Source of the DNA: an uncultured Gammaproteobacteria bacterium
GTDB taxonomy: Bacteria; Pseudomonadota; Gammaproteobacteria; Steroidobacterales; Steroidobacteraceae
Length of the DNA stretch: 64,000 bases
Assembly: GCA_963695155.1 (NCBI GenBank)
Contig: CAVOGD010000005.1
Location: 964 to 64,963, forward strand
Direction of reading: 5' to 3'
Part shown: positions 45,340 to 62,214 of the stretch, in pieces
Numbering within the stretch: position 1 is the first letter of the stretch
Layout: every line of letters begins with the position of its first letter
Position numbers and translations under genes: made by a program
The notes under the pieces: generated by a model
The model's database searches: none
What the model was told of the DNA's origin: nothing
Seen by the model: only the letters and a program-made list of their open reading frames with translations

Positions 45340-46683
<1,344 letters not shown>

Positions 46684-46828
46684 GATGCGGCGGGCCGGCC
46701 CGCCAGCCACCCATGCGTGCGTCGCGGAAATAGCGGCAGGTCGAGAATCACGGTTGGCTCCATGGGGATCCGGCCCACGATACGGCAGGCCCGCGCCACG
46801 TCAAGGACCCACGGCCGTACGCGCGCGC

Positions 46829-47281
46829 TCAACCCGCCGACAGCTTGAAGGCGCAGGGCAGGAGCTCGCCGATGCTCATGCTGCGCAGCCCGGCACCGTG
46901 CCAGGCAAAGTGCACGATCGCGTCCTCGCCGGCCGCGTGCTCGAAGATGCGCTGCCGGCAACCGCCGCAGGGCGAAATCGCGGCCGCCTGGCCCGCCTTG
47001 CCCGCCGCCCAGACCGCGACCTCGGCAATTCGGAATGCGGGGCCTTCGGCCAGCACGCCGGCGGCGATGGCCCCCGCCTCGGCGCAGCTGCCCAGCGGGT
47101 AGGCCGCATTCTCCACGTTGCAACCTGCGTACACGCTGCCCGACGTCGCCAGCACCGCGGCACCCACGTGCAGCCCTGAATACGCGGCATGCGCCTGTGG
47201 GGCGGCGGCCTCCGCCGCGGCCAGCAGCGCTTTGCGCGTGGCCGCCCGGCCGGGCACCAGTGGGAGACGATGGTCGGTCAT
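46829..47281 (-). CDS. cdd: cytidine deaminase
   Basis: Zinc motifs are CAEAGAI and SPCGGCRQ. The start is at MTDHRLPL (47281). Confidence 0.85.
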   Translation of the reverse strand: MTDHRLPLVPGRAATRKALLAAAEAAAPQAHAAYSGLHVGAAVLATSGSVYAGCNVENAAYPLGSCAEAGAIAAGVLAEGPAFRIAEVAVWAAGKAGQAAAISPCGGCRQRIFEHAAGEDAIVHFAWHGAGLRSMSIGELLPCAFKLSAG

Positions 47282-47626
47282 GAGTGGGCGTTTCCGCGAT
47301 CCCGGCACCGGCGCCGGGCGCACACTTTGCCTCCTGCCGATGGCAATGGCCACTGGGTGGGCCACAGGGATCGCTCAATGCGGACATCCTGGACCGGCGC
47401 ATGGACCAAAGATGTGCCAAAATAAGTCGTTACATCAAGGGGTTGTGGTACGTCCGGCGCGGCGCCGATCCTGCCGTCCGACCGCTCGCCACGGACCCGG
47501 GATCGAGGCAGCGCCAGGCAGCGCGGAGGTCTTGCGGTAATTCGCATTGCGCCGGCGGCGATGAACGGTAAATTGGGCGCCCCCCGGCCGGACCGGGGCG
47601 GGTGTCGTTTGCGAGAGAGGGGCAGC

Positions 47627-48520
47627 ATGAGCAGCAAACAGACTGGGGCCGGCTTCGAGATCGTCGCGCGCGAGGACTTCTCGGATGTCACGTACCTGCT
47701 GGAGGTGCACCATCCCGCGATGGCGCGCGCCGCGAAGCCAGGTCAGTTCGTGATCGTGATGTGTCACGAGAACGGCGAGCGCATCCCGCTCACCATCGCC
47801 GACTACGATCGCGCCAGGGGCACCATCACGCTGGTCATCCAGGCGGTCGGCAAGTCCACCCGCGAGATGCAGCAGGACTGCCAGGTCGGCACGAAGCTGT
47901 TCGCACTGGTCGGGCCGATGGGCATCCCGAGCCACATCGGCAAGCCGAAGAAGGTGCTGTGTGTCGGCGGCGGCCTGGGCGTCGCGCCGGTGTTTCCGCA
48001 GGCCCGCGCCTTCAAGGAAGCCGGCGCCTACGTCATCGGCGTGGTCGGGTTCCGCAACAAGGACCTGGTCTTCTGGGAAGACAAGTTCCGCGCCTGCTGC
48101 GACGAGCTGATCGTCTGCACCGATGACGGATCGGCGGGCGTCAAGGGCATGGTGACGGAAGGCATCCGGCTGGCCGTCGAGCGTCACGCCGACATAGACG
48201 AGTGCCTCGCCATCGGCCCGCCGATCATGATGAAGGGCTGCGCCGAGGCGACCCGCCCGCACGGCATCAAGACGATGGTCAGCCTCAATCCCATCATGGT
48301 GGACGGCACCGGCATGTGCGGCGGCTGTCGCGTGAAGATCGGCGAGAGCATCAAGTTCGCCTGCGTGGACGGTCCCGATTTCGACGGCCATACGGTGGAC
48401 TTCGACGACCTGATGGCGCGGCTCAGCCGCTACCAGGCGACCGAGCGCGACGCCTACCAGCGCTGGCAGGACAGCTGCCGCCTGCGCAGCCAGGCCGACG
48501 GCAAGGCCGCCCGCGCCTGA
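47627..48520 (+). CDS. NfnA/SudB/PyrK-like FAD/NAD(P)-binding [2Fe-2S] oxidoreductase subunit
   Basis: FEIVAREDFSDVTYLLEVHHP, RIPLTIADYD, VGGGLGVAPV, and the C-terminal cluster motif GMCGGCRV...FACVDGPDF. Confidence 0.85.
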   Translation: MSSKQTGAGFEIVAREDFSDVTYLLEVHHPAMARAAKPGQFVIVMCHENGERIPLTIADYDRARGTITLVIQAVGKSTREMQQDCQVGTKLFALVGPMGIPSHIGKPKKVLCVGGGLGVAPVFPQARAFKEAGAYVIGVVGFRNKDLVFWEDKFRACCDELIVCTDDGSAGVKGMVTEGIRLAVERHADIDECLAIGPPIMMKGCAEATRPHGIKTMVSLNPIMVDGTGMCGGCRVKIGESIKFACVDGPDFDGHTVDFDDLMARLSRYQATERDAYQRWQDSCRLRSQADGKAARA

Positions 48521-48561: not shown

Positions 48562-50112
48562 ATGGCAGTCAAGAAGCGGACGATCCGCACCATTCCCCAG
48601 GAGCGGACCCCCGCGCGCGAGCAGGATCCCGCCGAGCGGGCCAGGAATTTCCGCGAGGTCAACTGCGGCTACACGCCGGAGGACGCGCTGCGCGAGGCCG
48701 AGCGCTGCCTGTACTGCCCCGAGCAGCCCTGCGTGGCCGGCTGCCCGGTCAACATCGACATTCCGGGGTTCATCCAGAGGATCAGCGAGCAGAACTACCG
48801 CGGCGCCTACGACGTCATCACCGACACCAACCTGCTGCCGGCGATCTGCGGGCGCGTCTGCCCGCAGGAGACGCAGTGCGAGAAGGTGTGCACCGTCGGC
48901 GAGGGCAAGCTGGAGCCGGTCGCGATCGGGCGCCTCGAGCGCTGGGTCGGCGACATGGCCATCGCCGAGAACTGGACCAACATTCCCTACATCGAGCCGA
49001 ACGGCCTGCGCGTCGGCATCGTCGGTTCCGGGCCGGCGGGCATGGCCTGCGCAGCCGACATGGCCAAGGCCGGCTGCGACGTCACGGTGTTCGAGGCCTT
49101 CCACGAACCCGGCGGCGTGCTGAAGTACGGCATCCCCGACTTCCGGCTGCCCAACGAGGTGATCGACGCCGAGATCGACAAGCTGGTCAGGCTCGGCATC
49201 CGCTTCGAGTGCAACACGCTGGTGGGCCGGCTGTTCACCATCGAGCAGATGCTGCAGGACATGGGCTTCCATGCCGTGTTCATCGGTACCGGCGCCGGCT
49301 ACCCCAGCTTCATGGGCATCCCGGGCGAGTCGCTGAACGGCGTGCTGTCCGCCAACGAGCTGCTGACCCGCTGCAACCTGATGCGCGGCCGCGACTTCCC
49401 GAACTTCGACACGCCGATCCAGCCGGGCAAGCGGGTCGCCGTGATCGGCGCGGGCAACACGGCAATGGACGCGATGCGCGTCAGCCTGCGGCTCGGCGCC
49501 GAGAAGGTGTACTGCATCTACCGGCGCACCCTCGACGAGGCGCCGGCGCGCGTCGAGGAGATCCACCATGCCGAGGAGGAAGGCGTCGAGTTCCACTGGC
49601 TGACCAGCCCGGTCGAGCTCCTCGACGACGGCAACAAGGGCGTGCGCGGCATGCGCTGCATCAGGATGGAGCTCGGCGCGCCGGACGACTCGGGGCGCCG
49701 CCGGCCGGTGCCGGTCGAGGGCAGCGAGTTCGAGTTCGAGGCCGACATGATCGTCTATGCGATCGGCACCAACGCCAACCCGATCATCGGCCAGACCTCG
49801 GGGCTGAAGCTGAACAAGCGGGGCTACATCGCGGCCGACGAGAACCTCGCGACCTCCATCGCGGGGGTGTACGCGGGCGGCGACATCGTGACCGGCGCCG
49901 CAACCGTCATCGAGGCCATGGGCGCCGGCCGCAGGGCGGCGCGCGCGATGAAGGACTGGCTCGGGCTGCGCGACACCGAGGTCGTCTACCGCGACCCGCC
50001 GGAAGGCCCGGTTGACCGGCCGTTCGGCTTCGATCCGTCGGAGCACGACTTCGCACTGGTGAGGATCCCGGCGCCAGCCGCCGCACAGCAGACCGGGGGC
50101 ACGCCGGCCTGA
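48562..50112 (+). CDS. GltD/NfnB-like NAD(P)H-dependent FAD oxidoreductase subunit (glutamate synthase small chain family)
   Basis: Fe-S Cys motifs are CLYCPEQPCVAGCP and CGRVCPQETQCEKVC. Dinucleotide folds are VGIVGSGPAGMACA and VAVIGAGNTAMD. GVYAGGD is present. Confidence 0.88.
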   Translation: MAVKKRTIRTIPQERTPAREQDPAERARNFREVNCGYTPEDALREAERCLYCPEQPCVAGCPVNIDIPGFIQRISEQNYRGAYDVITDTNLLPAICGRVCPQETQCEKVCTVGEGKLEPVAIGRLERWVGDMAIAENWTNIPYIEPNGLRVGIVGSGPAGMACAADMAKAGCDVTVFEAFHEPGGVLKYGIPDFRLPNEVIDAEIDKLVRLGIRFECNTLVGRLFTIEQMLQDMGFHAVFIGTGAGYPSFMGIPGESLNGVLSANELLTRCNLMRGRDFPNFDTPIQPGKRVAVIGAGNTAMDAMRVSLRLGAEKVYCIYRRTLDEAPARVEEIHHAEEEGVEFHWLTSPVELLDDGNKGVRGMRCIRMELGAPDDSGRRRPVPVEGSEFEFEADMIVYAIGTNANPIIGQTSGLKLNKRGYIAADENLATSIAGVYAGGDIVTGAATVIEAMGAGRRAARAMKDWLGLRDTEVVYRDPPEGPVDRPFGFDPSEHDFALVRIPAPAAAQQTGGTPA

Positions 50113-50132: not shown

Positions 50133-52061
50133 ATGACCACCAAGCAAGCGACCAGGCCCACGAAGAAGCCAGCTGCCCCGGCGGCAGCCGCGCCCGCCAC
50201 CAGGCAGGCGATCGTGCTCAACGAGCATGTCGTCGAGATCATCAGCGATTCCGGCGAGGGCGCGCAGCGCTGCGGCCAGTCGTTCGGCTCGATCGCCGCA
50301 CGCATGGGCAACGGCGTGTGGACCGTCGAGATCATCCCTGCGGAGATCCAGCCGCCCGCGCGCAGCGTGGCCGGCGCCAGCGGCAACCGCATCCGGCTCG
50401 GCACCGGCGCGGTCACCAACGGCGGCGACGAGGCCGACCTGGTGATCGCCTTCAACGAGCAGGTGCTGCTGGGGCGCGTGCGCGACGGCGAGCTCAAGCC
50501 GGGCTGCCTGATCCTGCTGGAGGGCATGTGGCGCGAGCACCGCGACGCCGGGATCCGCGCCATGTTCACCGGAACGGTGGACCAGCTGATCGCCGACGGC
50601 TACCGGGTCGTCGAGGTGCCGATGGAAAAGCAGTGCCTGCAGATCGTCACCGATGCCAGGCGCGGCAAGAACATGTTCGCGCTCGGCATGCTGTGCAGCA
50701 TCTACAGCCTCGACACGGACCTCGGCCGCTCGCAGATCGCGTACACGTTCCGCAAGAAGGGCGCCAAGGTCATCAAGCCCAACCAGGACCTGTTCGACGC
50801 CGGTTACGCGTGGGCCGAGGCCAACCTCGACCTCAAGTTCAGCATTCCGGCGAGCCAGGTGTCCGAGCCGCAGATCGTGGTCAACGGCAACACCGCGCTG
50901 GCGCTCGGCGTGCTCGCATCGGGCATGGAAATCTGCGCGATGTACCCGATCACGCCCGCCACGTCCGTGTCCCACTACCTGAGCGACGTGTTCGAGAAGG
51001 TGGGCGGCATCGTGCACCAGGCCGAGGACGAGATCGCCGCGGCCACCTTCGCGATCGGCGCCTCGTACGCGGGCAACGTCGCGGTCACGGTGACCTCCGG
51101 GCCCGGCTATTCGCTCAAGCAGGAGGCGATCGGCCTGGCGGTGATGGCCGAGATCCCGCTGGTCGTCATCAACGTGCAGCGCGGCGGCCCCAGCACCGGC
51201 CAGCCGACCAAGGCCGAGCAGGGCGACCTGCTGACCACGGTGTACGGCAGCCACGGCGACGCGCCCAAGGTCGTGATGGCGGCTTCCAGCATCGAGGACT
51301 GCTTCTACTCGGTCATCACGGCGCGCAAGATCGCCGAGACCTTCAACATGGTCGTGGTCGTGCTGTCCGACGCGGCGCTCGCCACCGCGCAGACGCTGTT
51401 CCCGCGGCCGCAGTTCAGCGAAGCCTGGCTCGCACCGCCGCTCGACCAGAGCCCCGTCCCGGCGGGCGCCAAGCCCTACGACTGGGACGAGCACACCGGT
51501 CTGTTCCGCCGCTTCGTGCCGGGCCAGGCCGGCGGCATGCACACGCTGACCGGGCTGGCGCACGACCGCGCCAGCAAGGTCGCCTACGACCCGGTCAACA
51601 ACGAGGAAGGCCTGCGCCGCCGCAGCCTGAAGCTGGCGGCGCTGCAGAAGACGCTGACCACGCCGGCGGTCTTCGGCGACGAGGACGGCGACCTGCTGAT
51701 CGTCGGCTGGGGCAGCACCAAGGGCGCGATCGAGGAAGCGGTCACGCGGCTGCGCGCCGAGGGCCACAAGGTGTCCTCGCTGCACCTCACGTTCATCCAG
51801 CCGATGCCGAGCGGAATCCGCCAGATCCTCAAGCGGTTCGACCGCGTGATGACGGTGGAGAACAACTGGTCGGATACGACGCAGGACCAGATCATCGACG
51901 AGGACAACCGGCGCTACTCCGCGCTCGCCCTGATGCTGCGCGGCAGGTTCCTCGCGGACGTCGACTGCTGGACCGAATCACGCGGCCGGCCGCTCACGCC
52001 CGGCGCCATCTGCCGCGCGGTCCGTCCGCGCCTGGCCGGCCAGAAGGGGAAAGCGGCATGA
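50133..52061 (+). CDS. korA: 2-oxoacid:acceptor (ferredoxin) oxidoreductase subunit alpha
   Basis: 642 aa with fused gamma-like and alpha domains (ISDSGEGAQRCGQSFG; NGNTALALGVLASGMEICAMYPITPAT; VNVQRGGPSTGQPTK). Confidence 0.9.
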   Translation: MTTKQATRPTKKPAAPAAAAPATRQAIVLNEHVVEIISDSGEGAQRCGQSFGSIAARMGNGVWTVEIIPAEIQPPARSVAGASGNRIRLGTGAVTNGGDEADLVIAFNEQVLLGRVRDGELKPGCLILLEGMWREHRDAGIRAMFTGTVDQLIADGYRVVEVPMEKQCLQIVTDARRGKNMFALGMLCSIYSLDTDLGRSQIAYTFRKKGAKVIKPNQDLFDAGYAWAEANLDLKFSIPASQVSEPQIVVNGNTALALGVLASGMEICAMYPITPATSVSHYLSDVFEKVGGIVHQAEDEIAAATFAIGASYAGNVAVTVTSGPGYSLKQEAIGLAVMAEIPLVVINVQRGGPSTGQPTKAEQGDLLTTVYGSHGDAPKVVMAASSIEDCFYSVITARKIAETFNMVVVVLSDAALATAQTLFPRPQFSEAWLAPPLDQSPVPAGAKPYDWDEHTGLFRRFVPGQAGGMHTLTGLAHDRASKVAYDPVNNEEGLRRRSLKLAALQKTLTTPAVFGDEDGDLLIVGWGSTKGAIEEAVTRLRAEGHKVSSLHLTFIQPMPSGIRQILKRFDRVMTVENNWSDTTQDQIIDEDNRRYSALALMLRGRFLADVDCWTESRGRPLTPGAICRAVRPRLAGQKGKAA

Positions 52062-53062
52062 AGACCACGGGCGCCAAGACCAGCGATTGCCTCGTCAAGC
52101 TGTACGAGGAGCGCCGCCAGCTGGAGGACTACCAGGGCGGCGTGCCGCGCTGGTGCAGCGGCTGCGGCGACAGCGCCATCCTGACCGCGGTGCAGCGGCT
52201 GTGCCGCGACGAGGGGCTGCGCCCCGAGAAGAGCGTGTTCGTGTCGGGCATCGGCTGCTCGAGCCGCCTGCCGCACTACATGAAGACCTACGGTTTCCAC
52301 GGCATCCACGGCCGCGCGCTGCCGATCGCGCAGGGCGTCAAGATGGCGCGCCCGGACCTGCACGTGTTCGTGAGCACCGGCGACGGCGACAACTGCAGCA
52401 TCGGCGCCGCGCACTGGATCCACGCGATCCGCTACAACATGAACATGACCATGATGCTGCACGACAACCACATCTACGGGCTCACCAAGAAGCAGGCGTC
52501 GCCGACCTCGCCGATCGGCCTGAAGAGCAACACGACCCCGCGCGGCGCCTACCTGGACGCGCTCAACCCGCTGACGGTGACGCTGGGGATACAGAACGTC
52601 TCGTTCGTCGCGCAGGCGGTGGACTGGATCCCGGAACTGCTGTCCGACATCATCTCGCGGGCGTTTCGCCACAAGGGCTTCTCGTTCGTGCGCATCATCC
52701 AGCGCTGTCCGGAGTTCCTGCCCAAGATGTTCGACGCCTGGCTGCAGGACACGCAGCGCACGCTGCTGGTCACGCACGAGAACGGCATCAGGCCGAGCGC
52801 GGCGATCGGCCAGTTGTACCGCAACCAGATCCAGCACGACCCGTCGGACATCGACCGGGCGCGCGAGATCGCCTCGGGACTCGACCCGATCCCGGTGGGC
52901 ATCCTGTACCACAACCCCGCCGTGCCCTGTTACGAGGACATTCGCAACGCCGGGCAGCTGCGCACGCCCGAGATGATCAAGGCCGGGCTCGAGTCCGAAT
53001 TCGACAAGTTCACCGTCTGGCCGGAAGGCCACCCGCAGGCGCAGGTCTCTCCAGCATCATGA
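52058..53062 (+). CDS. korB: 2-oxoacid:ferredoxin oxidoreductase subunit beta (TPP-binding)
   Basis: RWCSGCGDSAIL, GIGCSSR, GDGDNCSIGAAH, HDNHIYGLTKKQASPT. The ATG overlaps the korA stop. Confidence 0.9.
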   Translation: MKTTGAKTSDCLVKLYEERRQLEDYQGGVPRWCSGCGDSAILTAVQRLCRDEGLRPEKSVFVSGIGCSSRLPHYMKTYGFHGIHGRALPIAQGVKMARPDLHVFVSTGDGDNCSIGAAHWIHAIRYNMNMTMMLHDNHIYGLTKKQASPTSPIGLKSNTTPRGAYLDALNPLTVTLGIQNVSFVAQAVDWIPELLSDIISRAFRHKGFSFVRIIQRCPEFLPKMFDAWLQDTQRTLLVTHENGIRPSAAIGQLYRNQIQHDPSDIDRAREIASGLDPIPVGILYHNPAVPCYEDIRNAGQLRTPEMIKAGLESEFDKFTVWPEGHPQAQVSPAS

Positions 53063-55302
53063 ATGCCAACCTCCAGCAACAGACCGTCTTCCACCTGACC
53101 GGCAGGCGGCCGGCGGAATCCCTGGAGCCGCTGTCCGGACGGCAGCTGCGCCCGGCACTGGTCGCGCGTTATCGCGACCTGACGCGCCTGCGTTACGACT
53201 TCCCGGTGGTGCTGGTCAGCGGCGCGCAAGACGCGCCTTTCGTCCGCTCGCTGACCGAGATCGTCAACGCCTTCCTGCGCGCGAACGCCGCGCCGGGCCC
53301 GGATGGCGAGGGGCTGCGCAAGCACGTCATGCGCGTCGAGCGCGAGATCCGCCGCGACCTGGCGGCCGGCAAGCGCGGCCGCCTGTCGGAATTGTGGCCC
53401 CGTGCCGCGCTGCGCCTGGCGGAGCACGCCGACGCGGCGCTGGCCGAAGCACTGGAACATGCCGGCAGTTCGCTGGGCGTGGACGGCGAGCTGCTGGACT
53501 GCGGCGAGGACATGCCGGCCGCGGTGCTGGAGCACGCGTGGCGCCGCGTGCAGGACGCACGGGCCCGCGACGCACGCGTCGAGATCAATGCGCTGATCGT
53601 GCGCCTCAACGACATCCTGCGGGTCGATTACGCCAACTCGGAGGCCGGCCGCACGCCCGACAGTCTCGGCAGGTCGGTCGGCACCAAGCAGGCCGGCATG
53701 TTCGACTTCGAAATGATGTCGCGCATCCTCGCGCTGGGCTCGCCGGTGCGGCGCCTTTCCGACAGCCGCCGTGCGCGCATCGACGACGCACTCGCGGTGA
53801 TGCGTTCGCAGCGCTTCTTCCCGGTGGTGACCACGGGCAGCGAGGCGGTCCAGCCGTTCGGCTTCGTCTTCGACTCCTGTCGCGAGGCGCTGCAGGAGTA
53901 CTCGAATCGCCTGCCGCTGATGGCGGAGCTCGTCAGGGCGATGTCCATCGCCGCACTCGAGGCGGACGGCCGCTACGTCGAGGCCAAGCACGACCCGCTG
54001 TTCGCGGACAGCGACCCGGATTCGCTGCGGGCGCAGGACCTGGCGATGTTCCCCGACTACCTCGTGTGCCTGCGGCGCCGCGAGCACGGCGTCGCGGCCG
54101 ACGCGCCCTTGATGGAGCTGCTGTCCTCCGGCATGCCGGCCAAGGTGCTGGTGCAGGTGGACGACATCCTCGAGGAAGCCTCGCTGGGCCAGGGCCGCTT
54201 CCCCTTCGGCATGCGCAGCGTGCAGCTGGCCAGCACCGCCATCGGGCTGACCGAGACCTTCGTGCTGCAATCGAGCAGCTCGAACCTGCTGCAGTTGCGC
54301 GACCGCATCCGCGCCGGCATGGAGCACGCGGGCTCCGCGCTGTTCAGCGTCTTCTCCGGCAGCGCGGCCGGCGGCGACGGCCTGCCCGCCTACCTGGTGA
54401 GCGCCGCGGCGATGCAGTCGCGCGCGTTCCCGGCCTTCACGTACGATCCCGGCACGGGCACCGACCTCGCCTCGCGTTTCTGCCTCGAGCACAACCCGCA
54501 GGCCGAGGCCGCGTGGCCGGTGACCTCGTTCGAGTACGCCGACGCGGACCTGCAGCGCATCACCGGGCCGCTGGCTTTCACGCTGGCCGACTTCATCGCC
54601 TGCGACCCGCGCCACGCAAGGCATTTCGCGCTGGTGCCCCAGGGGGCCTGGAACGAAGCGATGATGCCGGTGGCCGAGTGGCTGTCCCGGGATACGGACG
54701 AGCCCGACGGCAAGGTGCCTTACCTGCTGGCCGTGGACGAGGCCAACGTCCTGCACCGCATCATCGTCGACGACAAGATCATCCAGGCCGCACGGCGTTG
54801 CGGCGAGAACTGGCGCCGGCTGCAGGAACTGGGCGGCATCAACAACTCCTATGCCGAGCGCCTGCTGGCCCGCGAGAAGGCCCTGTGGGAAGAGGCCAGG
54901 CAGAAGGAAATCGCGGCGCTGTCAGGCGCCCGGGCGCAGCCCGCGGCAGCCGAGGCATCGCCGGCGGCCGACGCAGAGCCGGCCGCGACCCCCGCAGAGC
55001 CAGCGCCGGCCGCCGCAGAGCCGGCGCCGGCCGTCGAGGAAGCCGCGCGCTCGCCCGACGAGCCGTACATCGAGACCATCCGCTGCTCGTCGTGCAACGA
55101 GTGCACGAACATCAACGACGCGATGTTCAAGTACAACGACGACCAGCAGGCCTACGTCGCCGACCTGAAGGCCGGCACCTACCGGCAGATGGTCGAGGCC
55201 GCGGAGAGCTGCCAGCTCGCCATCATCCATCCGGGCAAGCCCTGGAACCCGAAGGAGCCCGGCCTCGAGGACCTGCTCAAGCGCGCGGCGACTTTCGACT
55301 GA
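53059..55302 (+). CDS. 747-aa uncharacterised protein with C-terminal single-cluster ferredoxin domain
   Basis: The ATG overlaps the korB stop (ATGA at 53059-53062). Codon usage matches neighbours over 2.2 kb. The ~640-aa N-terminal region has no recognised motif. It is followed by an Ala/Pro/Glu linker and then PYIETIRCSSCNECTNINDAMFKY...MVEAAESCQLAIIHPG (CxxCxxC...C). Confidence 0.75.
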   Translation: MNANLQQQTVFHLTGRRPAESLEPLSGRQLRPALVARYRDLTRLRYDFPVVLVSGAQDAPFVRSLTEIVNAFLRANAAPGPDGEGLRKHVMRVEREIRRDLAAGKRGRLSELWPRAALRLAEHADAALAEALEHAGSSLGVDGELLDCGEDMPAAVLEHAWRRVQDARARDARVEINALIVRLNDILRVDYANSEAGRTPDSLGRSVGTKQAGMFDFEMMSRILALGSPVRRLSDSRRARIDDALAVMRSQRFFPVVTTGSEAVQPFGFVFDSCREALQEYSNRLPLMAELVRAMSIAALEADGRYVEAKHDPLFADSDPDSLRAQDLAMFPDYLVCLRRREHGVAADAPLMELLSSGMPAKVLVQVDDILEEASLGQGRFPFGMRSVQLASTAIGLTETFVLQSSSSNLLQLRDRIRAGMEHAGSALFSVFSGSAAGGDGLPAYLVSAAAMQSRAFPAFTYDPGTGTDLASRFCLEHNPQAEAAWPVTSFEYADADLQRITGPLAFTLADFIACDPRHARHFALVPQGAWNEAMMPVAEWLSRDTDEPDGKVPYLLAVDEANVLHRIIVDDKIIQAARRCGENWRRLQELGGINNSYAERLLAREKALWEEARQKEIAALSGARAQPAAAEASPAADAEPAATPAEPAPAAAEPAPAVEEAARSPDEPYIETIRCSSCNECTNINDAMFKYNDDQQAYVADLKAGTYRQMVEAAESCQLAIIHPGKPWNPKEPGLEDLLKRAATFD
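54973..55035 (+). repeat. 3 x 21-nt in-frame tandem repeat (GCAGAGCCNGCNCCNGCCNNC) encoding AEPAxxx
   Basis: Units start at 54973, 54994 and 55015. They translate as AEPAATP / AEPAPAA / AEPAPAV. Confidence 0.7.
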
Positions 55303-55317: not shown

Positions 55318-56415
55318 GTGAGCGGCATGACGGACGGCGGGGCGCGGGGCGATTCGGCGACGCCGGCCGGACGGTCGCCGACCGGGCCGGTACGCGAGGA
55401 GCACCGCTTCGACGAGGCCGCCCTGCTGCGCTGGCTGCAGGCGCACCTGCCCGGCTTCGAAGGCCCGCTCGAACTGCTGCAGTTCGACGCGGGGCAGTCC
55501 AACCCGACCTTCCTGCTTCGCGCCGCGTCGGGCCAGTACGTGCTGCGCAAGCAGCCGCCCGGCAAGCTGGTCGCCTCCGCCCACTCGATGGACCGCGAGT
55601 ACCGCGTGCTGTCGGCGCTGGCCGGCAGCGACGTGCCGGTACCCATGGCGCTCGCGTACTGCGACGACCCGGCGCAGATCGGCACGCAGTTCTACGTCAT
55701 GGAGTACGTGCCGGGTCCGGTCTTTCACGACCCGTTGCTGCCGGGAGCGACGCCCGCGCAGCGCGCGGCCCTGTATGACTCGATGAATGCCGCGCTCGCG
55801 GCGCTGCACTCGGTGGACTGGCGCGGCGCGGGCCTGGACGGCTTCGGGCGCCCCGACCACTACGTCGAGCGGCAGGTCGCCCGCTGGGGCAAGCAGAACG
55901 ACGCGCTGGGCAGCGCCGACGCCGGCCCGCTGACCGCGCTGCGCGCGTGGCTCGAGGCCCACCTGCCCGACGACGAGCCGGCCGCCATCGCGCACGGCGA
56001 CTATCGCATGGGCAACATGATCTGCGCGCTGGACCGGCCGCGCGTCGTGGCCATCCTGGACTGGGAACTCGCGACCATCGGCCATCCGCTCGCCGACCTG
56101 GCCTATTGCTGCATGGCCTACGATTTCCCGGCCGGCCACGCCGTCTCGAAGGGCTTCGCGGGCGCCGACCTGGCCGAACTGGGGATTCCCGCCGAGGACG
56201 ACTTCGTGGCCGCCTACGCGCGTCGAACCGGGCGCGACGAGGTGCCCCACTGGCGCTTCTTCAAGGCTTTCAGCCTGTACCGCATGGCGTCCATCCAGCG
56301 CGGCGTATACGCGCGCGCGCTGGCCGGCAATGCCAGTTCGACGATGGCGCACCTGTTCGGCGAGAGCTGGCGCATGGTCGCCGAGGCCGGTCATGCCGTG
56401 ATCGCCGGGCGCTGA
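55318..56415 (+). CDS. phosphotransferase (APH/ChoK-like kinase fold) family protein
   Basis: LELLQFDAGQSNPTFLLRAASGQYVLRKQPPG, FYVMEYVPG, the catalytic loop IAHGDYRMGNMI, and ILDWELATIGHPLADL. Confidence 0.8.
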   Translation: MSGMTDGGARGDSATPAGRSPTGPVREEHRFDEAALLRWLQAHLPGFEGPLELLQFDAGQSNPTFLLRAASGQYVLRKQPPGKLVASAHSMDREYRVLSALAGSDVPVPMALAYCDDPAQIGTQFYVMEYVPGPVFHDPLLPGATPAQRAALYDSMNAALAALHSVDWRGAGLDGFGRPDHYVERQVARWGKQNDALGSADAGPLTALRAWLEAHLPDDEPAAIAHGDYRMGNMICALDRPRVVAILDWELATIGHPLADLAYCCMAYDFPAGHAVSKGFAGADLAELGIPAEDDFVAAYARRTGRDEVPHWRFFKAFSLYRMASIQRGVYARALAGNASSTMAHLFGESWRMVAEAGHAVIAGR

Positions 56416-56434: not shown

Positions 56435-57691
56435 TCAGGCGTCGCCCGGCACCGACAGCCACGGCGCGGTGGCGCCGCGCCGTTCGGCCGCGGCCTTCAT
56501 CTCCAGTTTCGCCACAGTGCGCAGGTGCACCTCGTCGGGCCCGTCGGCGACGCGCAGCGCCCGCCCCCAGGTCCACATCGAGGCCAGCGGCGTGTCGTTG
56601 GAAAGGCCCATCGCGCCGAATACCTGCATGGCGCGGTCGCACACCGCCACCTGCACACCCGGCACCAGCGCCTTGATCATGGCGACTTCCCGCGCCGCAC
56701 CCTGCGCCCCCTCGCGGTCGATCAGCCAGGCGGTGCGCAGCACCAGCAGGCGCGCCTGCTCGATCTCGATGCGCGAGCGCGCGATCCACTCCGCCACGGT
56801 GCCATGCTGGTGCAGGTGCCGGCCGAAGGCCTTGCGGTCCGCAGCGCGCTCGCACATCAGTTCCAGCGCCAGCTCGGCCTGGCCGATGGAACGCATGCAA
56901 TGATGGATGCGCCCCGGCCCGAGGCGGGCCTGCGCCATGGCAAAGCCCGCGCCCTCCTCGTGCACGAGGTTGGCCGCGGGCACCCTGACGTTCCTGAACA
57001 GCAGCTCGCAGTGACCCTCGGGCGAGTGGTGGTTCATGACCGGCATGTCCCGCACCACCGTCAGGCCGGGCGCGTCCATCGGCACCAGCACCAGGCTGTG
57101 GCGCCGGTACGGCCCGGCTTCCGGGTCGGTGACGCCCAGCACGATCGTCAGGCGGCAGTTCGGGTGCGCGGCGCCCGTGATGAACCACTTGCGGCCGTTG
57201 ACGACGTACTCGTCGCCCTCGCGGCGGATCGACGTCTGGATGTTGGTCGCATCCGAGGACGCGACGTCCGGCTCCGTCATGGAGAAGCACGAGCGGATCG
57301 ATCCCGCCAGCAGCGGCGCCAGCCACGCCTCGCGCTGCGCGGGGCTCGCGAACAGGTGCAGGATCTCCATGTTGCCGGTGTCCGGCGCGCTGCAGTTGAA
57401 GACCTCGGACGACCAGTGGACCCGTCCCATGAGCTCGGCGAGCGGCGCGTATTCGAGGTTGCTGAGGCGCGTGCCGGGCTCGTCGTCGCGCAAGCCCGGC
57501 AGGAACAGGTTCCACAGGCCCTCGGAACGCGCCAGGTCCTTGAGGTCCTCGATGACCGCCGGGTGGCGGCTGCCCGCGGCCACCTCCCGCTGCCACCGCG
57601 GCATGGCCGGCACGACGTATTCCTCGAGGAAGCGCCTTACCCGCAAACGCAGTTCTTCCGTGCGCGCCGAGTACCCGAAATCCATGGTCAC
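56435..57691 (-). CDS. acyl-CoA dehydrogenase family protein
   Basis: 418 aa. CFSMTEPDVASSDATN, GRKWFITGA, and the C-terminal helical domain with ...ADGPDEVH. Confidence 0.9.
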   Translation of the reverse strand: MTMDFGYSARTEELRLRVRRFLEEYVVPAMPRWQREVAAGSRHPAVIEDLKDLARSEGLWNLFLPGLRDDEPGTRLSNLEYAPLAELMGRVHWSSEVFNCSAPDTGNMEILHLFASPAQREAWLAPLLAGSIRSCFSMTEPDVASSDATNIQTSIRREGDEYVVNGRKWFITGAAHPNCRLTIVLGVTDPEAGPYRRHSLVLVPMDAPGLTVVRDMPVMNHHSPEGHCELLFRNVRVPAANLVHEEGAGFAMAQARLGPGRIHHCMRSIGQAELALELMCERAADRKAFGRHLHQHGTVAEWIARSRIEIEQARLLVLRTAWLIDREGAQGAAREVAMIKALVPGVQVAVCDRAMQVFGAMGLSNDTPLASMWTWGRALRVADGPDEVHLRTVAKLEMKAAAERRGATAPWLSVPGDA

Positions 57692-58776: not shown

Positions 58777-60468
58777 ATGAACGACAGACCCAGCTTCGTG
58801 CACGGCGCCAGCGACGTCCCGCTGCGCTACCTGACCGTCGGCGCATTGCTCGACGAAACCGTCGCGCGCCATGGCGACCGCGAGGCGCTCGTCGTGCCCC
58901 ACCAGCGGGTGCGCTGGACCTATCGCGAACTTGCGCAGCGGGCGGAGCGGTTCGCAGCGGGCCTGTACCGGCTGGGCATCCGGCCCGGCGACCGGGTCGG
59001 CATCTGGTCGCCGAACAATGCCGAGTGGGTCGTCACACAGCTGGCGACCGCCCGGCTCGGCGCGATCCTGGTCAACATCAACCCGGCCTACCGCCTGGCG
59101 GAACTCGAATTCGTGCTGAACAACGTCGGTTGCCGCACGCTGGTGCTGGCCGACGAGTTCAAGAGCAGCGACTACGTCGCCATGATCCGCGAGCTGGCGC
59201 CCGAGCTGGGCAGCTGCATGCCGGGAGCGCTGACGTCCGGCCGGCTGCCGACGCTGCAGCACGTCATCCACCTCGGCGCCGACGCCCTGCCAGGCTTCCT
59301 GCGCTTCGAGGACGTCGACCGCCTGGGCGATCCCGCCGACCGCGAGGACATCGCGGCGCTCGCCGCGCGGCTGCAGCCCGACGACCCGATCAACATCCAG
59401 TTCACGAGCGGCACGACCGGGCTGCCGAAGGGCGCGACGCTCACGCATTGCAACATCGTCAACAACGGCTACTTCGTGGCCGAGGGCATGAGCTTCACGG
59501 AGCAGGACCGGCTGTGCATCCCGGTGCCGCTGTATCACTGCTTCGGCATGGTGCTGGGCGTGCTGGGCTGCGTGAGCCATGGCGCGGCCATGATCTTCCC
59601 TGGCGCGGCATTCGAGGCCGGCAGCGTGCTGGCGGCGGTCCAGGCGGAGCGCTGCACCGCGCTGTACGGCGTGCCGACCATGTTCATCGCCGTGCTCGAG
59701 CACCCCGACTTCCGGGGCGCCGATTTCTCGTCCCTGCGCACGGGCGTGATGGCCGGTGCGCCGTGCCCGGTCGAGGTGATGAAGCGCGTCGTCAGCGAAA
59801 TGAACATGCAGCAGGTGACGATCGCCTATGGCATGACCGAGACCAGCCCGGTGAGCTTCCAGAGCGGGCCGCACGACTCGCTGGAGCGGCGGGTCGGGAC
59901 GGTCGGCCGCGTGCACCCGCACGTGCAGGTCAAGATCGTGGACGAGGCCGGCCGCGTGGTGCCGCGCGGGCAGAAAGGCGAGCTGCTGACGCGCGGCTAC
60001 AGCGTCATGAAGGGCTACTGGGAGGACGAGGAGAAGACCCGCAGGTCCATCGACGCGGACGGCTGGATGCACAGCGGCGACCTGGCGACGCTCGACGACG
60101 AGGGTTACTGCAACATCGTCGGACGGGTCAAGGACATGATCATCCGCGGCGGCGAGAACATCTTCCCCGCGGAGATCGAGGATTACCTGTTCCGGCACCC
60201 GAAGATCCAGGACGCACAGGTCTTCGGCGTCCCGCACGAACGCCTCGGCGAGGCGGTTTGCGCCTGGATCCGCCTCAAGCCCGGCCAGTCGTGCACCGAG
60301 GAAGAGGTGCTCGCGTTCTGTCGCGGCCAGATCGCCCACTACAAGATCCCGCTGTACATCCGCTTCGTGGACGACTACCCGATGACGGTCACCGGCAAGG
60401 TGCAGAAATTCGTCATGCGCGAGCGGATGGCGGCGGAGCTGGGGCTACGGGCGGCGCAGACGGCCTGA
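58777..60468 (+). CDS. AMP-binding acyl-CoA synthetase (fatty-acid-CoA ligase)
   Basis: [51 protein letters not shown], and the terminal TGKVQKF. Confidence 0.9.
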
Positions 60469-60573: not shown

Positions 60574-62214
60574 ATGCGTCTCGCCGCCGGAGTACTCGCC
60601 ATGACCTTGATCGCCACCAGTCCGGGTACGTCCGCCGCCGCCGGCGACGCCGGATCCGCCGGCTACGAGCAGTTGCTCGCGCTGTTCACAGAGTGGCGGT
60701 CCTTCGAGCAGCCCAAGCCCCGCAACGGCGCGCCCGACTACACGGCCGCGACGCTGGAGCGCCAGCACGCGGAGTTGAAGTCCTGGCAGGCGCGGCTGGC
60801 CGCGATCGACCCGGGCGGCTGGCCCGTCGAAAGGCAGGTGGACTGGCACCTCGTACGGGCTGAGATGAACGGCTTCGACTTCAACCTCCGCGTCCTCAAG
60901 CCGTGGCAGCGCGACCCCGCCTTCTACAAGACCGTGTGGACCGAGCAAAGCGACACGCCGGCGCACGAAGGCCCGACGCATCACCAGGCGGTTGAGCTGT
61001 GGACCTATGCCTTTCCGTTGTCGCCCGCCGCCGAGGCCGAACTCGCCGCCGGGCTCGGCATCATCCCGCCGTTGCTCGAGCAGGCCCGCATGAACCTCAC
61101 CGGCAATGCGCGGGACCTATGGGTCTCCGGCGTCGGCACACTCCGCCAGCAGGTCGCCGATCTCGACGCACTCGCCGGTTCGCTACCGGGGGCGACGCCG
61201 GCGCTGCGGCAGGCGCTGCACGAGGCGCGGCAGGCGACCGTCGAATTCGTCTCCTGGCTCGAGCAGCAGGCACCCGCCAAGACCGGCCCGTCCGGCATCG
61301 GCAAGGACCACTACACCTGGAACCTGCGGAACGTTCACCTCGTGCCGCTGACCTGGGAGGAGGAAGTCGTGATCCTCGAACGCGAGCTCGCTCGCGCGCA
61401 TGCCGCGCTGCGGATCGAGGAGCACCGCAACCGCGACCTGCCGCCGCTGCAGGCGATCGGCAGTCCCGAGGAATTCGAGCGCCGCACTGACCAGGCGGTC
61501 GGCAAGTACATGGCGTTCCTGCGGGACCGCGAGGTACTTCACGTGCGCGACTACATGGAACCCGCCCTGCGCGCGAAGCGCGGCAGCTTCGTGCCCGTGG
61601 AGCAGCGCAACTTCTTCTGGATCGCGACGCACCTCGAGCCGATGACCTTGTACACGCACTTCTATCACTGGTGGGACCTGGCCCGCATGCGCGAGGACCC
61701 GCACCCCAGCCCGATCCGCCGCGGGCCATTGCTCTACAACATCTGGGACAGCCGTGCCGAGGGCGTGGCGACGGGGATGGAAGAGATCGTGATGCACGCC
61801 GGGTATTACGACGACAACCCGCGTGCGCGGGAGATCGTCTGGATCATGCTGGCGCAGCGCGCGGCGCGCGGCCTCGGCTCGCTGTACGCGCACGCCAACG
61901 AGTTCACGATGAAGCAGGCCGCGGACTTCCACGTTGCCTGGACGCCGCGCGGCTGGATGCGCGAGGACCTGGACCTGCTGGGATTCGAGCAGCAGCTGTA
62001 CCTGCGCCAGCCGGGTTACGGCACCAGCTACGTGACCGGCAAGCACCTCCTGGACACACTGCTCAAGGACCGCTCGCGCCAACTCGGGGACGGCTTCACG
62101 CTGGCGCGCTTCTTCGAGGAGGTGGACGCGGCCGGGATGATCCCCGTCTCGCTGCTGCGCTGGCAGCTGACGGGCGACGGCGACGAGATCCGGTCCCTGA
62201 CCAGCAACCCGTGA
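60574..62214 (+). CDS. secreted DUF885-like protein
   Basis: Signal MRLAAGVLAMTLIATSPGTSAAA. The C-terminal region (...YLRQPGYGTSYVTGKHLLDTLLKD) resembles DUF885 as I recall it. The family call is tentative. Confidence 0.55.
   Translation: MRLAAGVLAMTLIATSPGTSAAAGDAGSAGYEQLLALFTEWRSFEQPKPRNGAPDYTAATLERQHAELKSWQARLAAIDPGGWPVERQVDWHLVRAEMNGFDFNLRVLKPWQRDPAFYKTVWTEQSDTPAHEGPTHHQAVELWTYAFPLSPAAEAELAAGLGIIPPLLEQARMNLTGNARDLWVSGVGTLRQQVADLDALAGSLPGATPALRQALHEARQATVEFVSWLEQQAPAKTGPSGIGKDHYTWNLRNVHLVPLTWEEEVVILERELARAHAALRIEEHRNRDLPPLQAIGSPEEFERRTDQAVGKYMAFLRDREVLHVRDYMEPALRAKRGSFVPVEQRNFFWIATHLEPMTLYTHFYHWWDLARMREDPHPSPIRRGPLLYNIWDSRAEGVATGMEEIVMHAGYYDDNPRAREIVWIMLAQRAARGLGSLYAHANEFTMKQAADFHVAWTPRGWMREDLDLLGFEQQLYLRQPGYGTSYVTGKHLLDTLLKDRSRQLGDGFTLARFFEEVDAAGMIPVSLLRWQLTGDGDEIRSLTSNP

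Follow-up and report, generated by a model that had tools for sequence, protein, structure and literature searches.

The subject of this analysis is the 747-amino-acid product, here given the working name X, of the open reading frame (ORF) at 53059-55302 on the plus strand of a 64,000-nt stretch of DNA (the window) from an uncultured Gammaproteobacteria bacterium of the Steroidobacteraceae. X appears to be a pseudoenzyme of the 2-oxoacid:ferredoxin oxidoreductase (OFOR) superfamily which is fused to a tethered ferredoxin, acts as a dedicated partner of the two-subunit OFOR KorAB and belongs to an apparently unstudied family. Its gene is the last of five in the order nfnA-nfnB-korA-korB-X. We lean towards the reading that X is an accessory subunit of KorAB and that electrons pass between KorB and a ferredoxin:NAD(P)+ oxidoreductase by way of the tethered [4Fe-4S] domain of X. 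No ferredoxin motif other than that of X was found in the operon or in the 64-kb window.

The X gene and its product

The window has a G+C content of approximately 70% and contains long meaningless ORFs in all six frames, an example being the minus strand ORF at 52930-54756 which overlaps the X gene. ORF length alone is therefore no proof of coding. The X frame is uninterrupted and has a G+C content at third codon positions (GC3) of 0.92, the same as nfnB, korA and korB. The ATG is at the same start position as in the homologues. A search of 5.8 billion protein clusters identified 1,957 relatives of X (clusters at 90% identity), and the best 120 of these had 52-94% identity over the full length. 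In the 120-sequence alignment 86 columns are invariant. By GC3, shared start, number of relatives and invariant columns the X frame is a real coding gene.

The family comprises at least 1,803 clusters at 50% identity, and X was found in at least 590 stretches of one-genome-per-species data. It ranges over Beta-, Gamma- and Alphaproteobacteria and also occurs in Thermoleophilia, Gaiellaceae and metagenome-assembled genomes of Acidobacteria. The preliminary description of this DNA had raised the question of taxonomic distribution, to which the answer is many phyla, and had regarded a tethered ferredoxin as an unusual architecture. The latter view did not hold, as the family is large with fixed synteny and the same module is present on full-length pyruvate:ferredoxin oxidoreductases (PFORs).

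The AlphaFold2 model of X had a mean predicted local distance difference test score (pLDDT) of 85.7 and a predicted template modeling score of 0.76. The model and the domain matches bear out the three-part layout proposed previously, namely a large N-terminal part, a linker and a ferredoxin module. Residues 1-296 (53059..53946; plus strand, as for all parts of X) comprise a domain IV-like N-terminal segment and a mostly helical region, as judged by hhalign, a MAFFT chain alignment and model pLDDT values of 76-96. They hold C148, a relic of the CxGC proximal-cluster position, and a helical insertion common only to the PFORs of rnf operons. Residues 297-590 (53947..54828) were assigned by Foldseek, hhalign and alignment to a degenerate PFOR domain VI, which has a diphosphate-binding Rossmann-like fold, and to a beta-rich extension behind it. 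A long conserved helix, GG(I/V)xNSxAxRLLAxE...W, covers residues 591-625 (54829..54933; modeled as helix at 597-625) and leads into a disordered tether rich in Ala, Pro and Glu at residues 626-665 (54934..55053), recognized by its composition and by pLDDT below 50 at 628-660. The single-cluster ferredoxin domain occupies residues 666-725 (55054..55233) with C676, C679, C682 and C718 as ligands. Residues 726-747 and the stop codon (55234..55302) make up a tail, HPGKPxNPxEPGLxxLxxRAxxF, of near-invariant columns and constant length. Six scattered cysteines (148, 274, 337, 475, 515 and 581) precede the C-terminal module, in agreement with the earlier count.

The single-cluster ferredoxin predicted at the C-terminus was upheld by three lines of evidence. 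Pfam Fer4_13 (PF13370) matched residues 673-724 with 27.4 bits against a gathering score of 24.5. The module aligned Cys for Cys with Desulfovibrio africanus ferredoxin I (1dax). Foldseek placed it on 1fxr_A with a TM-score of 0.78 and a root-mean-square deviation of 1.7 A over 59 columns, as expected of a ferredoxin fold. The four Cys are invariant in the 120-sequence family alignment, and because all four ligands are present a [4Fe-4S] cluster is the simplest expectation. C718 is followed by Gln, as had been noticed, and not by the canonical Pro of single-cluster ferredoxins. This is a feature of the clade: Gln follows the fourth Cys in 158 of 179 X family sequences, as it does in the window protein, and Pro in 19, which belong to a distant clade and to fusion forms. 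Apart from the CP motif, the sequence of the C-terminal domain marks it as a bona fide Fer4_13 member. It shares its fold and CxxCxxC...C register with D. africanus ferredoxin I and differs in the Gln, the 22-residue tail and the tether to a 625-residue body.

The tether has 19 Ala, 8 Pro and 6 Glu among its 40 residues (48, 20, and 15%, respectively) and is the sole long stretch of X with pLDDT under 50. Across the family its length varies from approximately 0 to 70 residues past the helix, with a composition of 35% Ala, 17% Glu and 16% Pro. The distance from the fourth Cys to the C-terminus is always 30 residues. Conservation within X is highest in the ferredoxin and tail, and the 22-residue tail is among the best-kept parts even in the distant clade and in the Bacteroidota and Gemmatirosa PFORs. 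The linker had been likened to the swinging-arm linkers of 2-oxoacid dehydrogenase E2 subunits. It is indeed flexible and rich in Ala, Pro and Glu, but the likeness is compositional only; neither a lipoyl/biotinyl carrier domain nor an E2 catalytic core was detected in X with Pfam (E <= 1). Weak matches of X to PspA, cytochrome cy (6xkw_Y) and TssA were rejected as artefacts of the low-complexity linker. X homologues are called "ferredoxin" or "hypothetical protein" in most sources, but the homologue P0011 (JGI) is named "cytochrome c5" in one, a name which probably arose as an artefact of the Ala/Pro-rich linker.

Origin of the X body

Residues 1-640 gave no match in Pfam (E <= 1), in NCBIfam, or in the PDB using phmmer or hmmsearch with a 120-sequence profile, and the X body has no Pfam or NCBIfam family model. 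Hhalign comparison of the X family to shallow KorA and KorB alignments from related loci was not significant. Using the full X model, Foldseek ranked PFORs first, led by 6cin (E 1.5e-4, probability 1.00, 383-438 aligned columns) and followed by 7plm and 1b0p, then beta subunits of oxalate (OOR; 5exe_C, E 1e-2) and 2-oxoacid oxidoreductases, and other thiamine-diphosphate enzymes. TM-scores against the PFORs were low (0.2) because only part of each chain was matched. A second AlphaFold2 model, covering residues 262-626 with a 15-sequence alignment, reached a pLDDT of 56 and was discarded and not used.

The homology of X to the OFOR superfamily was visible only through PFORs of rnf operons as intermediates. 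A 1,526-amino-acid protein of the metagenomic locus L097 has a PFOR N-terminus (6cin, E 7e-32), and its residues 1162-1444 aligned to X 297-588 with an hhalign probability of 98.7 (E 3e-16). An intermediate profile was built from four proteins: those of L097, the metagenomic locus L122, Persicobacter psychrovividus pPP1 and Gemmatirosa kalamazoonensis plasmid 1. This profile matched the X family with a probability of 100 and E 2.2e-63, covering X residues 11-747, and matched E. coli YdbK with a probability of 100 and E 4e-73 over 1,090 columns. From these transitive matches it follows that X is homologous to the C-terminal half of PFOR. The direct hhalign match of YdbK (1030-1104) to X was weak (E 0.0098) and covered the GPALFSVY and SRAFPAFxYDP motifs. 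As judged by profile comparison, the X body is a remote and degenerate homologue of the PFOR C-terminal half. Confidence in the structural and evolutionary statements made here on X is high. The preliminary description had considered the N-terminal part unassignable and of unknown origin. This was correct in that no curated family or direct search covers it, but the Foldseek results and the profile chain assign it to the PFOR half. Profile searches thus placed it in a well-studied family by homology, with the catalytic motifs gone.

At its N-terminus X (FHLTG...LRPALxxRYRDLxRLRYDFP) can be aligned to the part of domain IV located ahead of the first CxxCxxC of domain V. The dicluster domain itself has been deleted, and X has a single CxxCxxC...C set in place of two CxxCxxCxxxCP motifs. 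The X motif "DGExxDC" lies over "GDGACxGC" of PFOR and keeps one Cys (C148). This is the one of four proximal-cluster Cys retained, with GC(S/T)S and the last cluster positions replaced. The GGDG motif for thiamine diphosphate and Mg is replaced by "RRRE" or similar, and no TPP_enzyme_C match was obtained. The Pyr domain (I) and domains II and III are not in X and are present in the operon on the separate KorA only. The motifs which survive are GPALFSVY (GPSLIIAY in PFOR) and SRAFPAFxYDP (GFWPLYRFDP in PFOR). The X body resembles the C-terminal half of PFORs such as YdbK, D. africanus 1b0p and M. thermoacetica 6cin in its domain IV segment, domain VI and these two motifs. X and the rnf-operon PFORs have in common a helical insertion of approximately 100 residues, the beta-rich extension, the long helix, the tether, the ferredoxin and the tail, all of which are missing from YdbK. 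With three defining features lacking, X is on this evidence a homologue of PFOR and not a functional member of the family, and can be described as a predicted pseudoenzyme with neither a thiamine-diphosphate site nor a proximal cluster.

The helix-tether-Fer4_13-tail module of X also ends PFORs of approximately 1,630 amino acids encoded in rnf operons. PFORs with a tethered Fer4_13 domain head rnfCDGEA in Persicobacter pPP1 (L166:5548-10434), Gemmatirosa plasmid 1 (L167:5008-10083), Aquiflexum (L168:8001-12908) and Muricauda (L169:8001-12968). In Persicobacter, Aquiflexum balticum and Muricauda rnfC-D-G-E-A directly follow the PFOR gene, and rnfB is nearby. Among aerobic Bacteroidota, PFORs of this type (approximately 1,630-1,690 amino acids) are 75-81% identical. 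X aligns over its full length to the C-terminal half of those from Persicobacter, Flammeovirga, Aquiflexum, Muricauda and Gemmatirosa, and in both cases the gene is beside a ferredoxin:NAD+ oxidoreductase. These PFORs keep all catalytic domains, whereas X is a separate polypeptide with catalysis left to KorAB.

The Persicobacter (1,629 amino acids) and Gemmatirosa (1,692 amino acids) proteins keep all catalytic motifs, that is CxGC, GC(T/S)S, GGDG...DTQVYSNTGGQ and the fourth Cys. Both match POR_N, PFOR_II, POR and TPP_enzyme_C, and the Gemmatirosa protein also matches Fer4_13. PFORs of this type are probably active enzymes. A search with the Persicobacter protein gave 4,937 relatives at E <= 1e-20. 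The top 120 were 1,617-1,656 amino acids in length with 75-99% identity and came mostly from aerobic Bacteroidota, including Flammeovirga, Cecembia, Aquiflexum, Fulvivirga, Muricauda and Saprospiraceae; many had a precomputed Fer4_13 match. These relatives are named only as "pyruvate ferredoxin oxidoreductase" or "2-oxoacid:acceptor oxidoreductase family protein."

PFOR-like proteins are also encoded between rnfB and rnfC at L097:7346-11923 (the 1,526-amino-acid protein) and at L122:8057-12628. Neither has the GDG motif, the proximal-cluster Cys or a C-terminal ferredoxin, and neither matches POR or TPP_enzyme_C. They look like full-length pseudo-PFORs within an rnf operon, beside korA-korB-X, and at these two loci X would supply the ferredoxin.

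Fusion forms of X were also seen. In P0204, P0261 and P0269 (1,236-1,377 amino acids) a divergent PFOR domain I/II region, with a weak PFOR_II match and no TPP_enzyme_C match, is fused in front of the X-like protein. These forms bridge the giant PFORs and stand-alone X as intermediates. No match was obtained when the N-terminal extension of P0204 was used in a word-indexed search.

X would have descended from the C-terminal half of a PFOR lineage which already carried a C-terminal ferredoxin on a flexible tether. Its enzyme part would then have decayed to a pseudoenzyme body, with the tether, ferredoxin and tail under strong constraint. X is a clear example of a PFOR-derived pseudoenzyme. It also draws attention to the PFORs with a tethered ferredoxin which head rnf operons in Bacteroidota, a large class that seems not to have been studied. 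No description of X, of the five-gene operon or of these PFORs was found in the full-text literature, coverage of which was partial, and an earlier description elsewhere is possible. With a family model for X, thousands of entries now called "hypothetical protein" or "ferredoxin" could be better annotated.

The operon and a proposed electron transfer role

All five genes of the operon are on the plus strand. The first (47624..48520) is nfnA-like and encodes the FAD/[2Fe-2S] small subunit of an NADH-dependent reduced ferredoxin:NADP+ oxidoreductase (5jca_S, E 1e-95; 4ylf_A, E 6e-77), with further matches to Pfam DHODB_Fe-S_bind and NCBIfam PRK06222. The second (48562..50112) is nfnB-like and encodes the large subunit with FAD, two [4Fe-4S] clusters and an NADPH site (4ylf_B, E 7e-172; 5jca_L, E 3e-145; Pfam Fer4_20 and Pyr_redox_2). 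Its PDB match stops at residue 467 of 516, leaving a C-terminal extension of approximately 45 amino acids (49966-50112). This extends past the match to T. maritima and P. furiosus NfnB, and its motif LGLRD..VY...FG(I/F/L)..EH.(F/Y)A.VR is kept in the same operon elsewhere; it may be a candidate docking element for KorAB or X. The korA gene (50133..52061) encodes a 2-oxoacid:acceptor oxidoreductase alpha subunit with fused gamma and alpha parts (domains III, I, and II; Pfam POR, POR_N, and PFOR_II; TIGR03710 at 512 bits, above the cut-off). The korB gene (52058..53062) encodes the beta subunit (5b46_B and 6n2n_B, E approximately 1e-51). In KorB the thiamine-diphosphate motif is intact and four Cys are available for one [4Fe-4S] cluster (CxxC, GCSS, GDGD...DN, and CP in the alignment). 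KorAB has no delta subunit here, and KorB has no domain V of its own. The stop TGA of korB (53060-53062) overlaps the start ATG of X (53059-53061) in an ATGA at 53059-53062, in line with the translational coupling reported earlier, and korA and korB are joined by the same ATGA overlap at 52058-52061.

A set of 164 related loci was collected by similarity to X, of which 84 came from species-representative genomes or exact look-up and 80 from metagenomes. The korB gene was directly upstream of X in all 130 loci with enough sequence, korA was upstream in 101 of 102, and in all 80 loci with 5.7 kb or more of flank nfnB was upstream and on the same strand. Outside the five genes the flanking genes differed from locus to locus. 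Identity is higher in the partner proteins (70-83%) than in X (46-60%). Two variants of the gene order were seen: in L088, L099 and L159 nfnAB are downstream and convergent, and in L097 and L122, which belong to the distant clade, and in L087 and L104 the order is korA-korB-X-rnfB-pseudoPFOR-rnfCDGEA.

Two-subunit OFORs have a single [4Fe-4S] cluster beside thiamine diphosphate and depend on external ferredoxin. NfnAB catalyzes the reversible reaction of 2 reduced ferredoxin, NADH and 2 NADP+ to 2 oxidized ferredoxin, NAD+ and 2 NADPH, while Rnf oxidizes ferredoxin with NAD+. Both alternative partners, Nfn and Rnf, are thus ferredoxin-dependent NAD(P)+ oxidoreductases. In the proposed mechanism the X body would anchor X to KorAB and/or the partner enzyme. 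The tethered ferredoxin would dock at the single [4Fe-4S] cluster of KorB, take electrons one by one and swing to the ferredoxin site of the partner, which would be NfnB here and RnfB in other lineages. The conserved tail and long helix may contribute to docking. The five-gene operon would then encode a self-contained 2-oxoacid:NAD(P)+ oxidoreductase with no need of free ferredoxin, an example being 2-oxoglutarate + CoA + NADH + 2 NADP+ -> succinyl-CoA + CO2 + NAD+ + 2 NADPH, or the reverse. The chemistry proposed is of a familiar kind.

A tethered carrier is the most economical reading because KorAB is the constant partner of X, and the partner that varies is in every case a ferredoxin-dependent NAD(P)+ oxidoreductase. 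It is also favored because X bears the only ferredoxin motif of the operon and because the homologous module is covalently attached to complete PFORs. We infer the association, electron direction, substrate, stoichiometry and swinging motion, and the functional model taken as a whole has a little better than an even chance of being correct.

Several points weigh against it. The related loci were found through X, so the counts show that X is always with KorAB and not the reverse. Most of them have a gap between korB and X (median approximately 64 nt between alignment ends) and no overlap. From gene adjacency one can read a functional link, but neither a stable complex nor a swinging motion. Some family members have a very short tether, with a minimum of approximately 0 residues past the helix, and the Gln after the fourth Cys in the X clade deviates from the canonical CP. 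Many polar and aromatic residues of the body are invariant, a number that may exceed the needs of a passive anchor; several of the invariant residues sit in motifs common to real PFORs.

The ferredoxin identity and operon position would fit equally well if X were a freely diffusing, high-molecular-weight cognate ferredoxin of KorAB, with a body for solubility, dimerization or recognition of several partners, and the lower conservation of X relative to its neighbors would also suit this. It is unlikely, since a 625-residue body held under purifying selection across at least 1,803 clusters is a costly handle, a flexible tether makes sense only with its other end fixed, and in the related PFORs the module is covalently on the enzyme. 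The body might also have kept or gained a ligand-binding or catalytic role (CoA, a nucleotide or another diphosphate ligand, for example) with the ferredoxin serving it. Its fold is that of a cofactor-binding domain, it has many invariant Arg, Asp, His, Tyr and Trp residues, and a conserved acidic strand end, VLVxxDDxLEE, is at the position of the Mg-binding residues of PFOR. The GDG motif, the Pyr domain partner and the cluster ligands are missing, however, no enzyme family profile matches, and several of the invariant motifs are structural and common to real PFORs, which leaves such a role with a low probability.

A protective or regulatory subunit, the cluster of which senses redox state or oxygen and which shields or switches KorAB, would be loosely comparable to domain VII of D. 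africanus PFOR or the nitrogenase FeSII protein. The hosts, mostly from soil and fresh water, are for the most part aerobic or facultative Proteobacteria and Bacteroidota, in which an oxygen-sensitive OFOR has to be protected, and a pseudoenzyme copy of domain VI could cover the surface of KorB. This is improbable, as the constant link to ferredoxin-consuming Nfn or Rnf points to electron delivery and not to sensing. Long spurious ORFs are common in the window, but the chance that X is merely an accidental open frame or a decaying pseudogene of a high-G+C genome is negligible, being refuted by the GC3 of 0.92, 1,957 relatives, 86 invariant columns, occurrence in many phyla and mean pLDDT of 85.7.

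The tethered-carrier reading of X can be extended to a stable supercomplex of KorAB, X and NfnAB in which the ferredoxin, on its 40-residue leash, physically shuttles electrons between the thiamine-diphosphate enzyme and the flavin-based electron-bifurcating module. This extension is speculative and more doubtful than probable. If true, the supercomplex would provide aerobic Proteobacteria with a ferredoxin-self-sufficient generator of NADPH driven by 2-oxoacids, or with an NADPH-driven 2-oxoacid synthase if run backwards. In aerobic Bacteroidota the same arm would link full-length PFORs directly to the Rnf ion pump, and X would be a pseudoenzyme scaffold recycled from a PFOR of this kind. Many aerobic and facultative bacteria have two-subunit KorAB enzymes, and the fate of the low-potential electrons of these enzymes is poorly understood. 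If the proposed role of X is correct, this fifth gene would close the electron circuit between KorAB and an NfnAB-type transhydrogenase or Rnf pump, and would explain the use of OFORs without a dedicated pool of free ferredoxin.

X can be compared to other electron transfer systems. The OFOR delta subunit and PFOR domain V, with two [4Fe-4S] clusters, have the role proposed for X, namely electron exit from the cluster on the thiamine-diphosphate side to an acceptor. X differs from these in having one cluster, in a mobile tethered domain rather than a rigidly docked one, and in belonging to another ferredoxin family. KorABC of Azoarcus evansii is a three-subunit 2-oxoglutarate:NADP+ oxidoreductase which has one GltD-like KorC and is not known to have NfnA, X or a tethered ferredoxin. 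As proposed for the X operon, its KorAB is coupled directly to pyridine nucleotide, with an additional flavo-iron-sulfur protein as the link. Tethered carriers include membrane-anchored cytochrome cy, which has an Ala/Pro-rich linker, and the E2 lipoyl swinging arms of 2-oxoacid dehydrogenase. The CYP51-ferredoxin fusion of Methylococcus capsulatus is a tethered redox carrier according to its description (PMC7947880). In all three, as in X, a flexible Ala/Pro-rich linker bears a small carrier domain. They differ from X in carrier, enzyme family and partners, and X has no lipoyl or haem domain.

Neighboring genes

Downstream of X, an APH-family phosphotransferase gene begins after 16 nt (55318-56415, plus strand) and is convergent with an acyl-CoA dehydrogenase gene (56435-57691, minus strand). 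Both were considered as members of the operon and rejected, being missing from all 164 related loci. Genes for an AMP-binding ligase (58777-60468) and a DUF885 protein (60574-62214) likewise accompany X in none of these loci. The four products were identified by library matches. Promoter and terminator scans of the region gave results at or below shuffle expectation and were not used. Upstream, a thymidine/pyrimidine-nucleoside phosphorylase gene (Glycos_transf_3 and PYNP_C; 45340-46710, minus strand) is divergent from the operon and separated from nfnA by approximately 900 nt (46710-47624). In one related locus (L003:1-3382, GCA_017880775.1, minus strand) a second OFOR set is located upstream of the five-gene operon. 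It encodes a 605-amino-acid Fer4_20, Pyr_redox_2 and Fer4_7 protein beside a POR/POR_N alpha subunit, an arrangement which we take to be reminiscent of a KorC-type NADP-dependent 2-oxoglutarate oxidoreductase.

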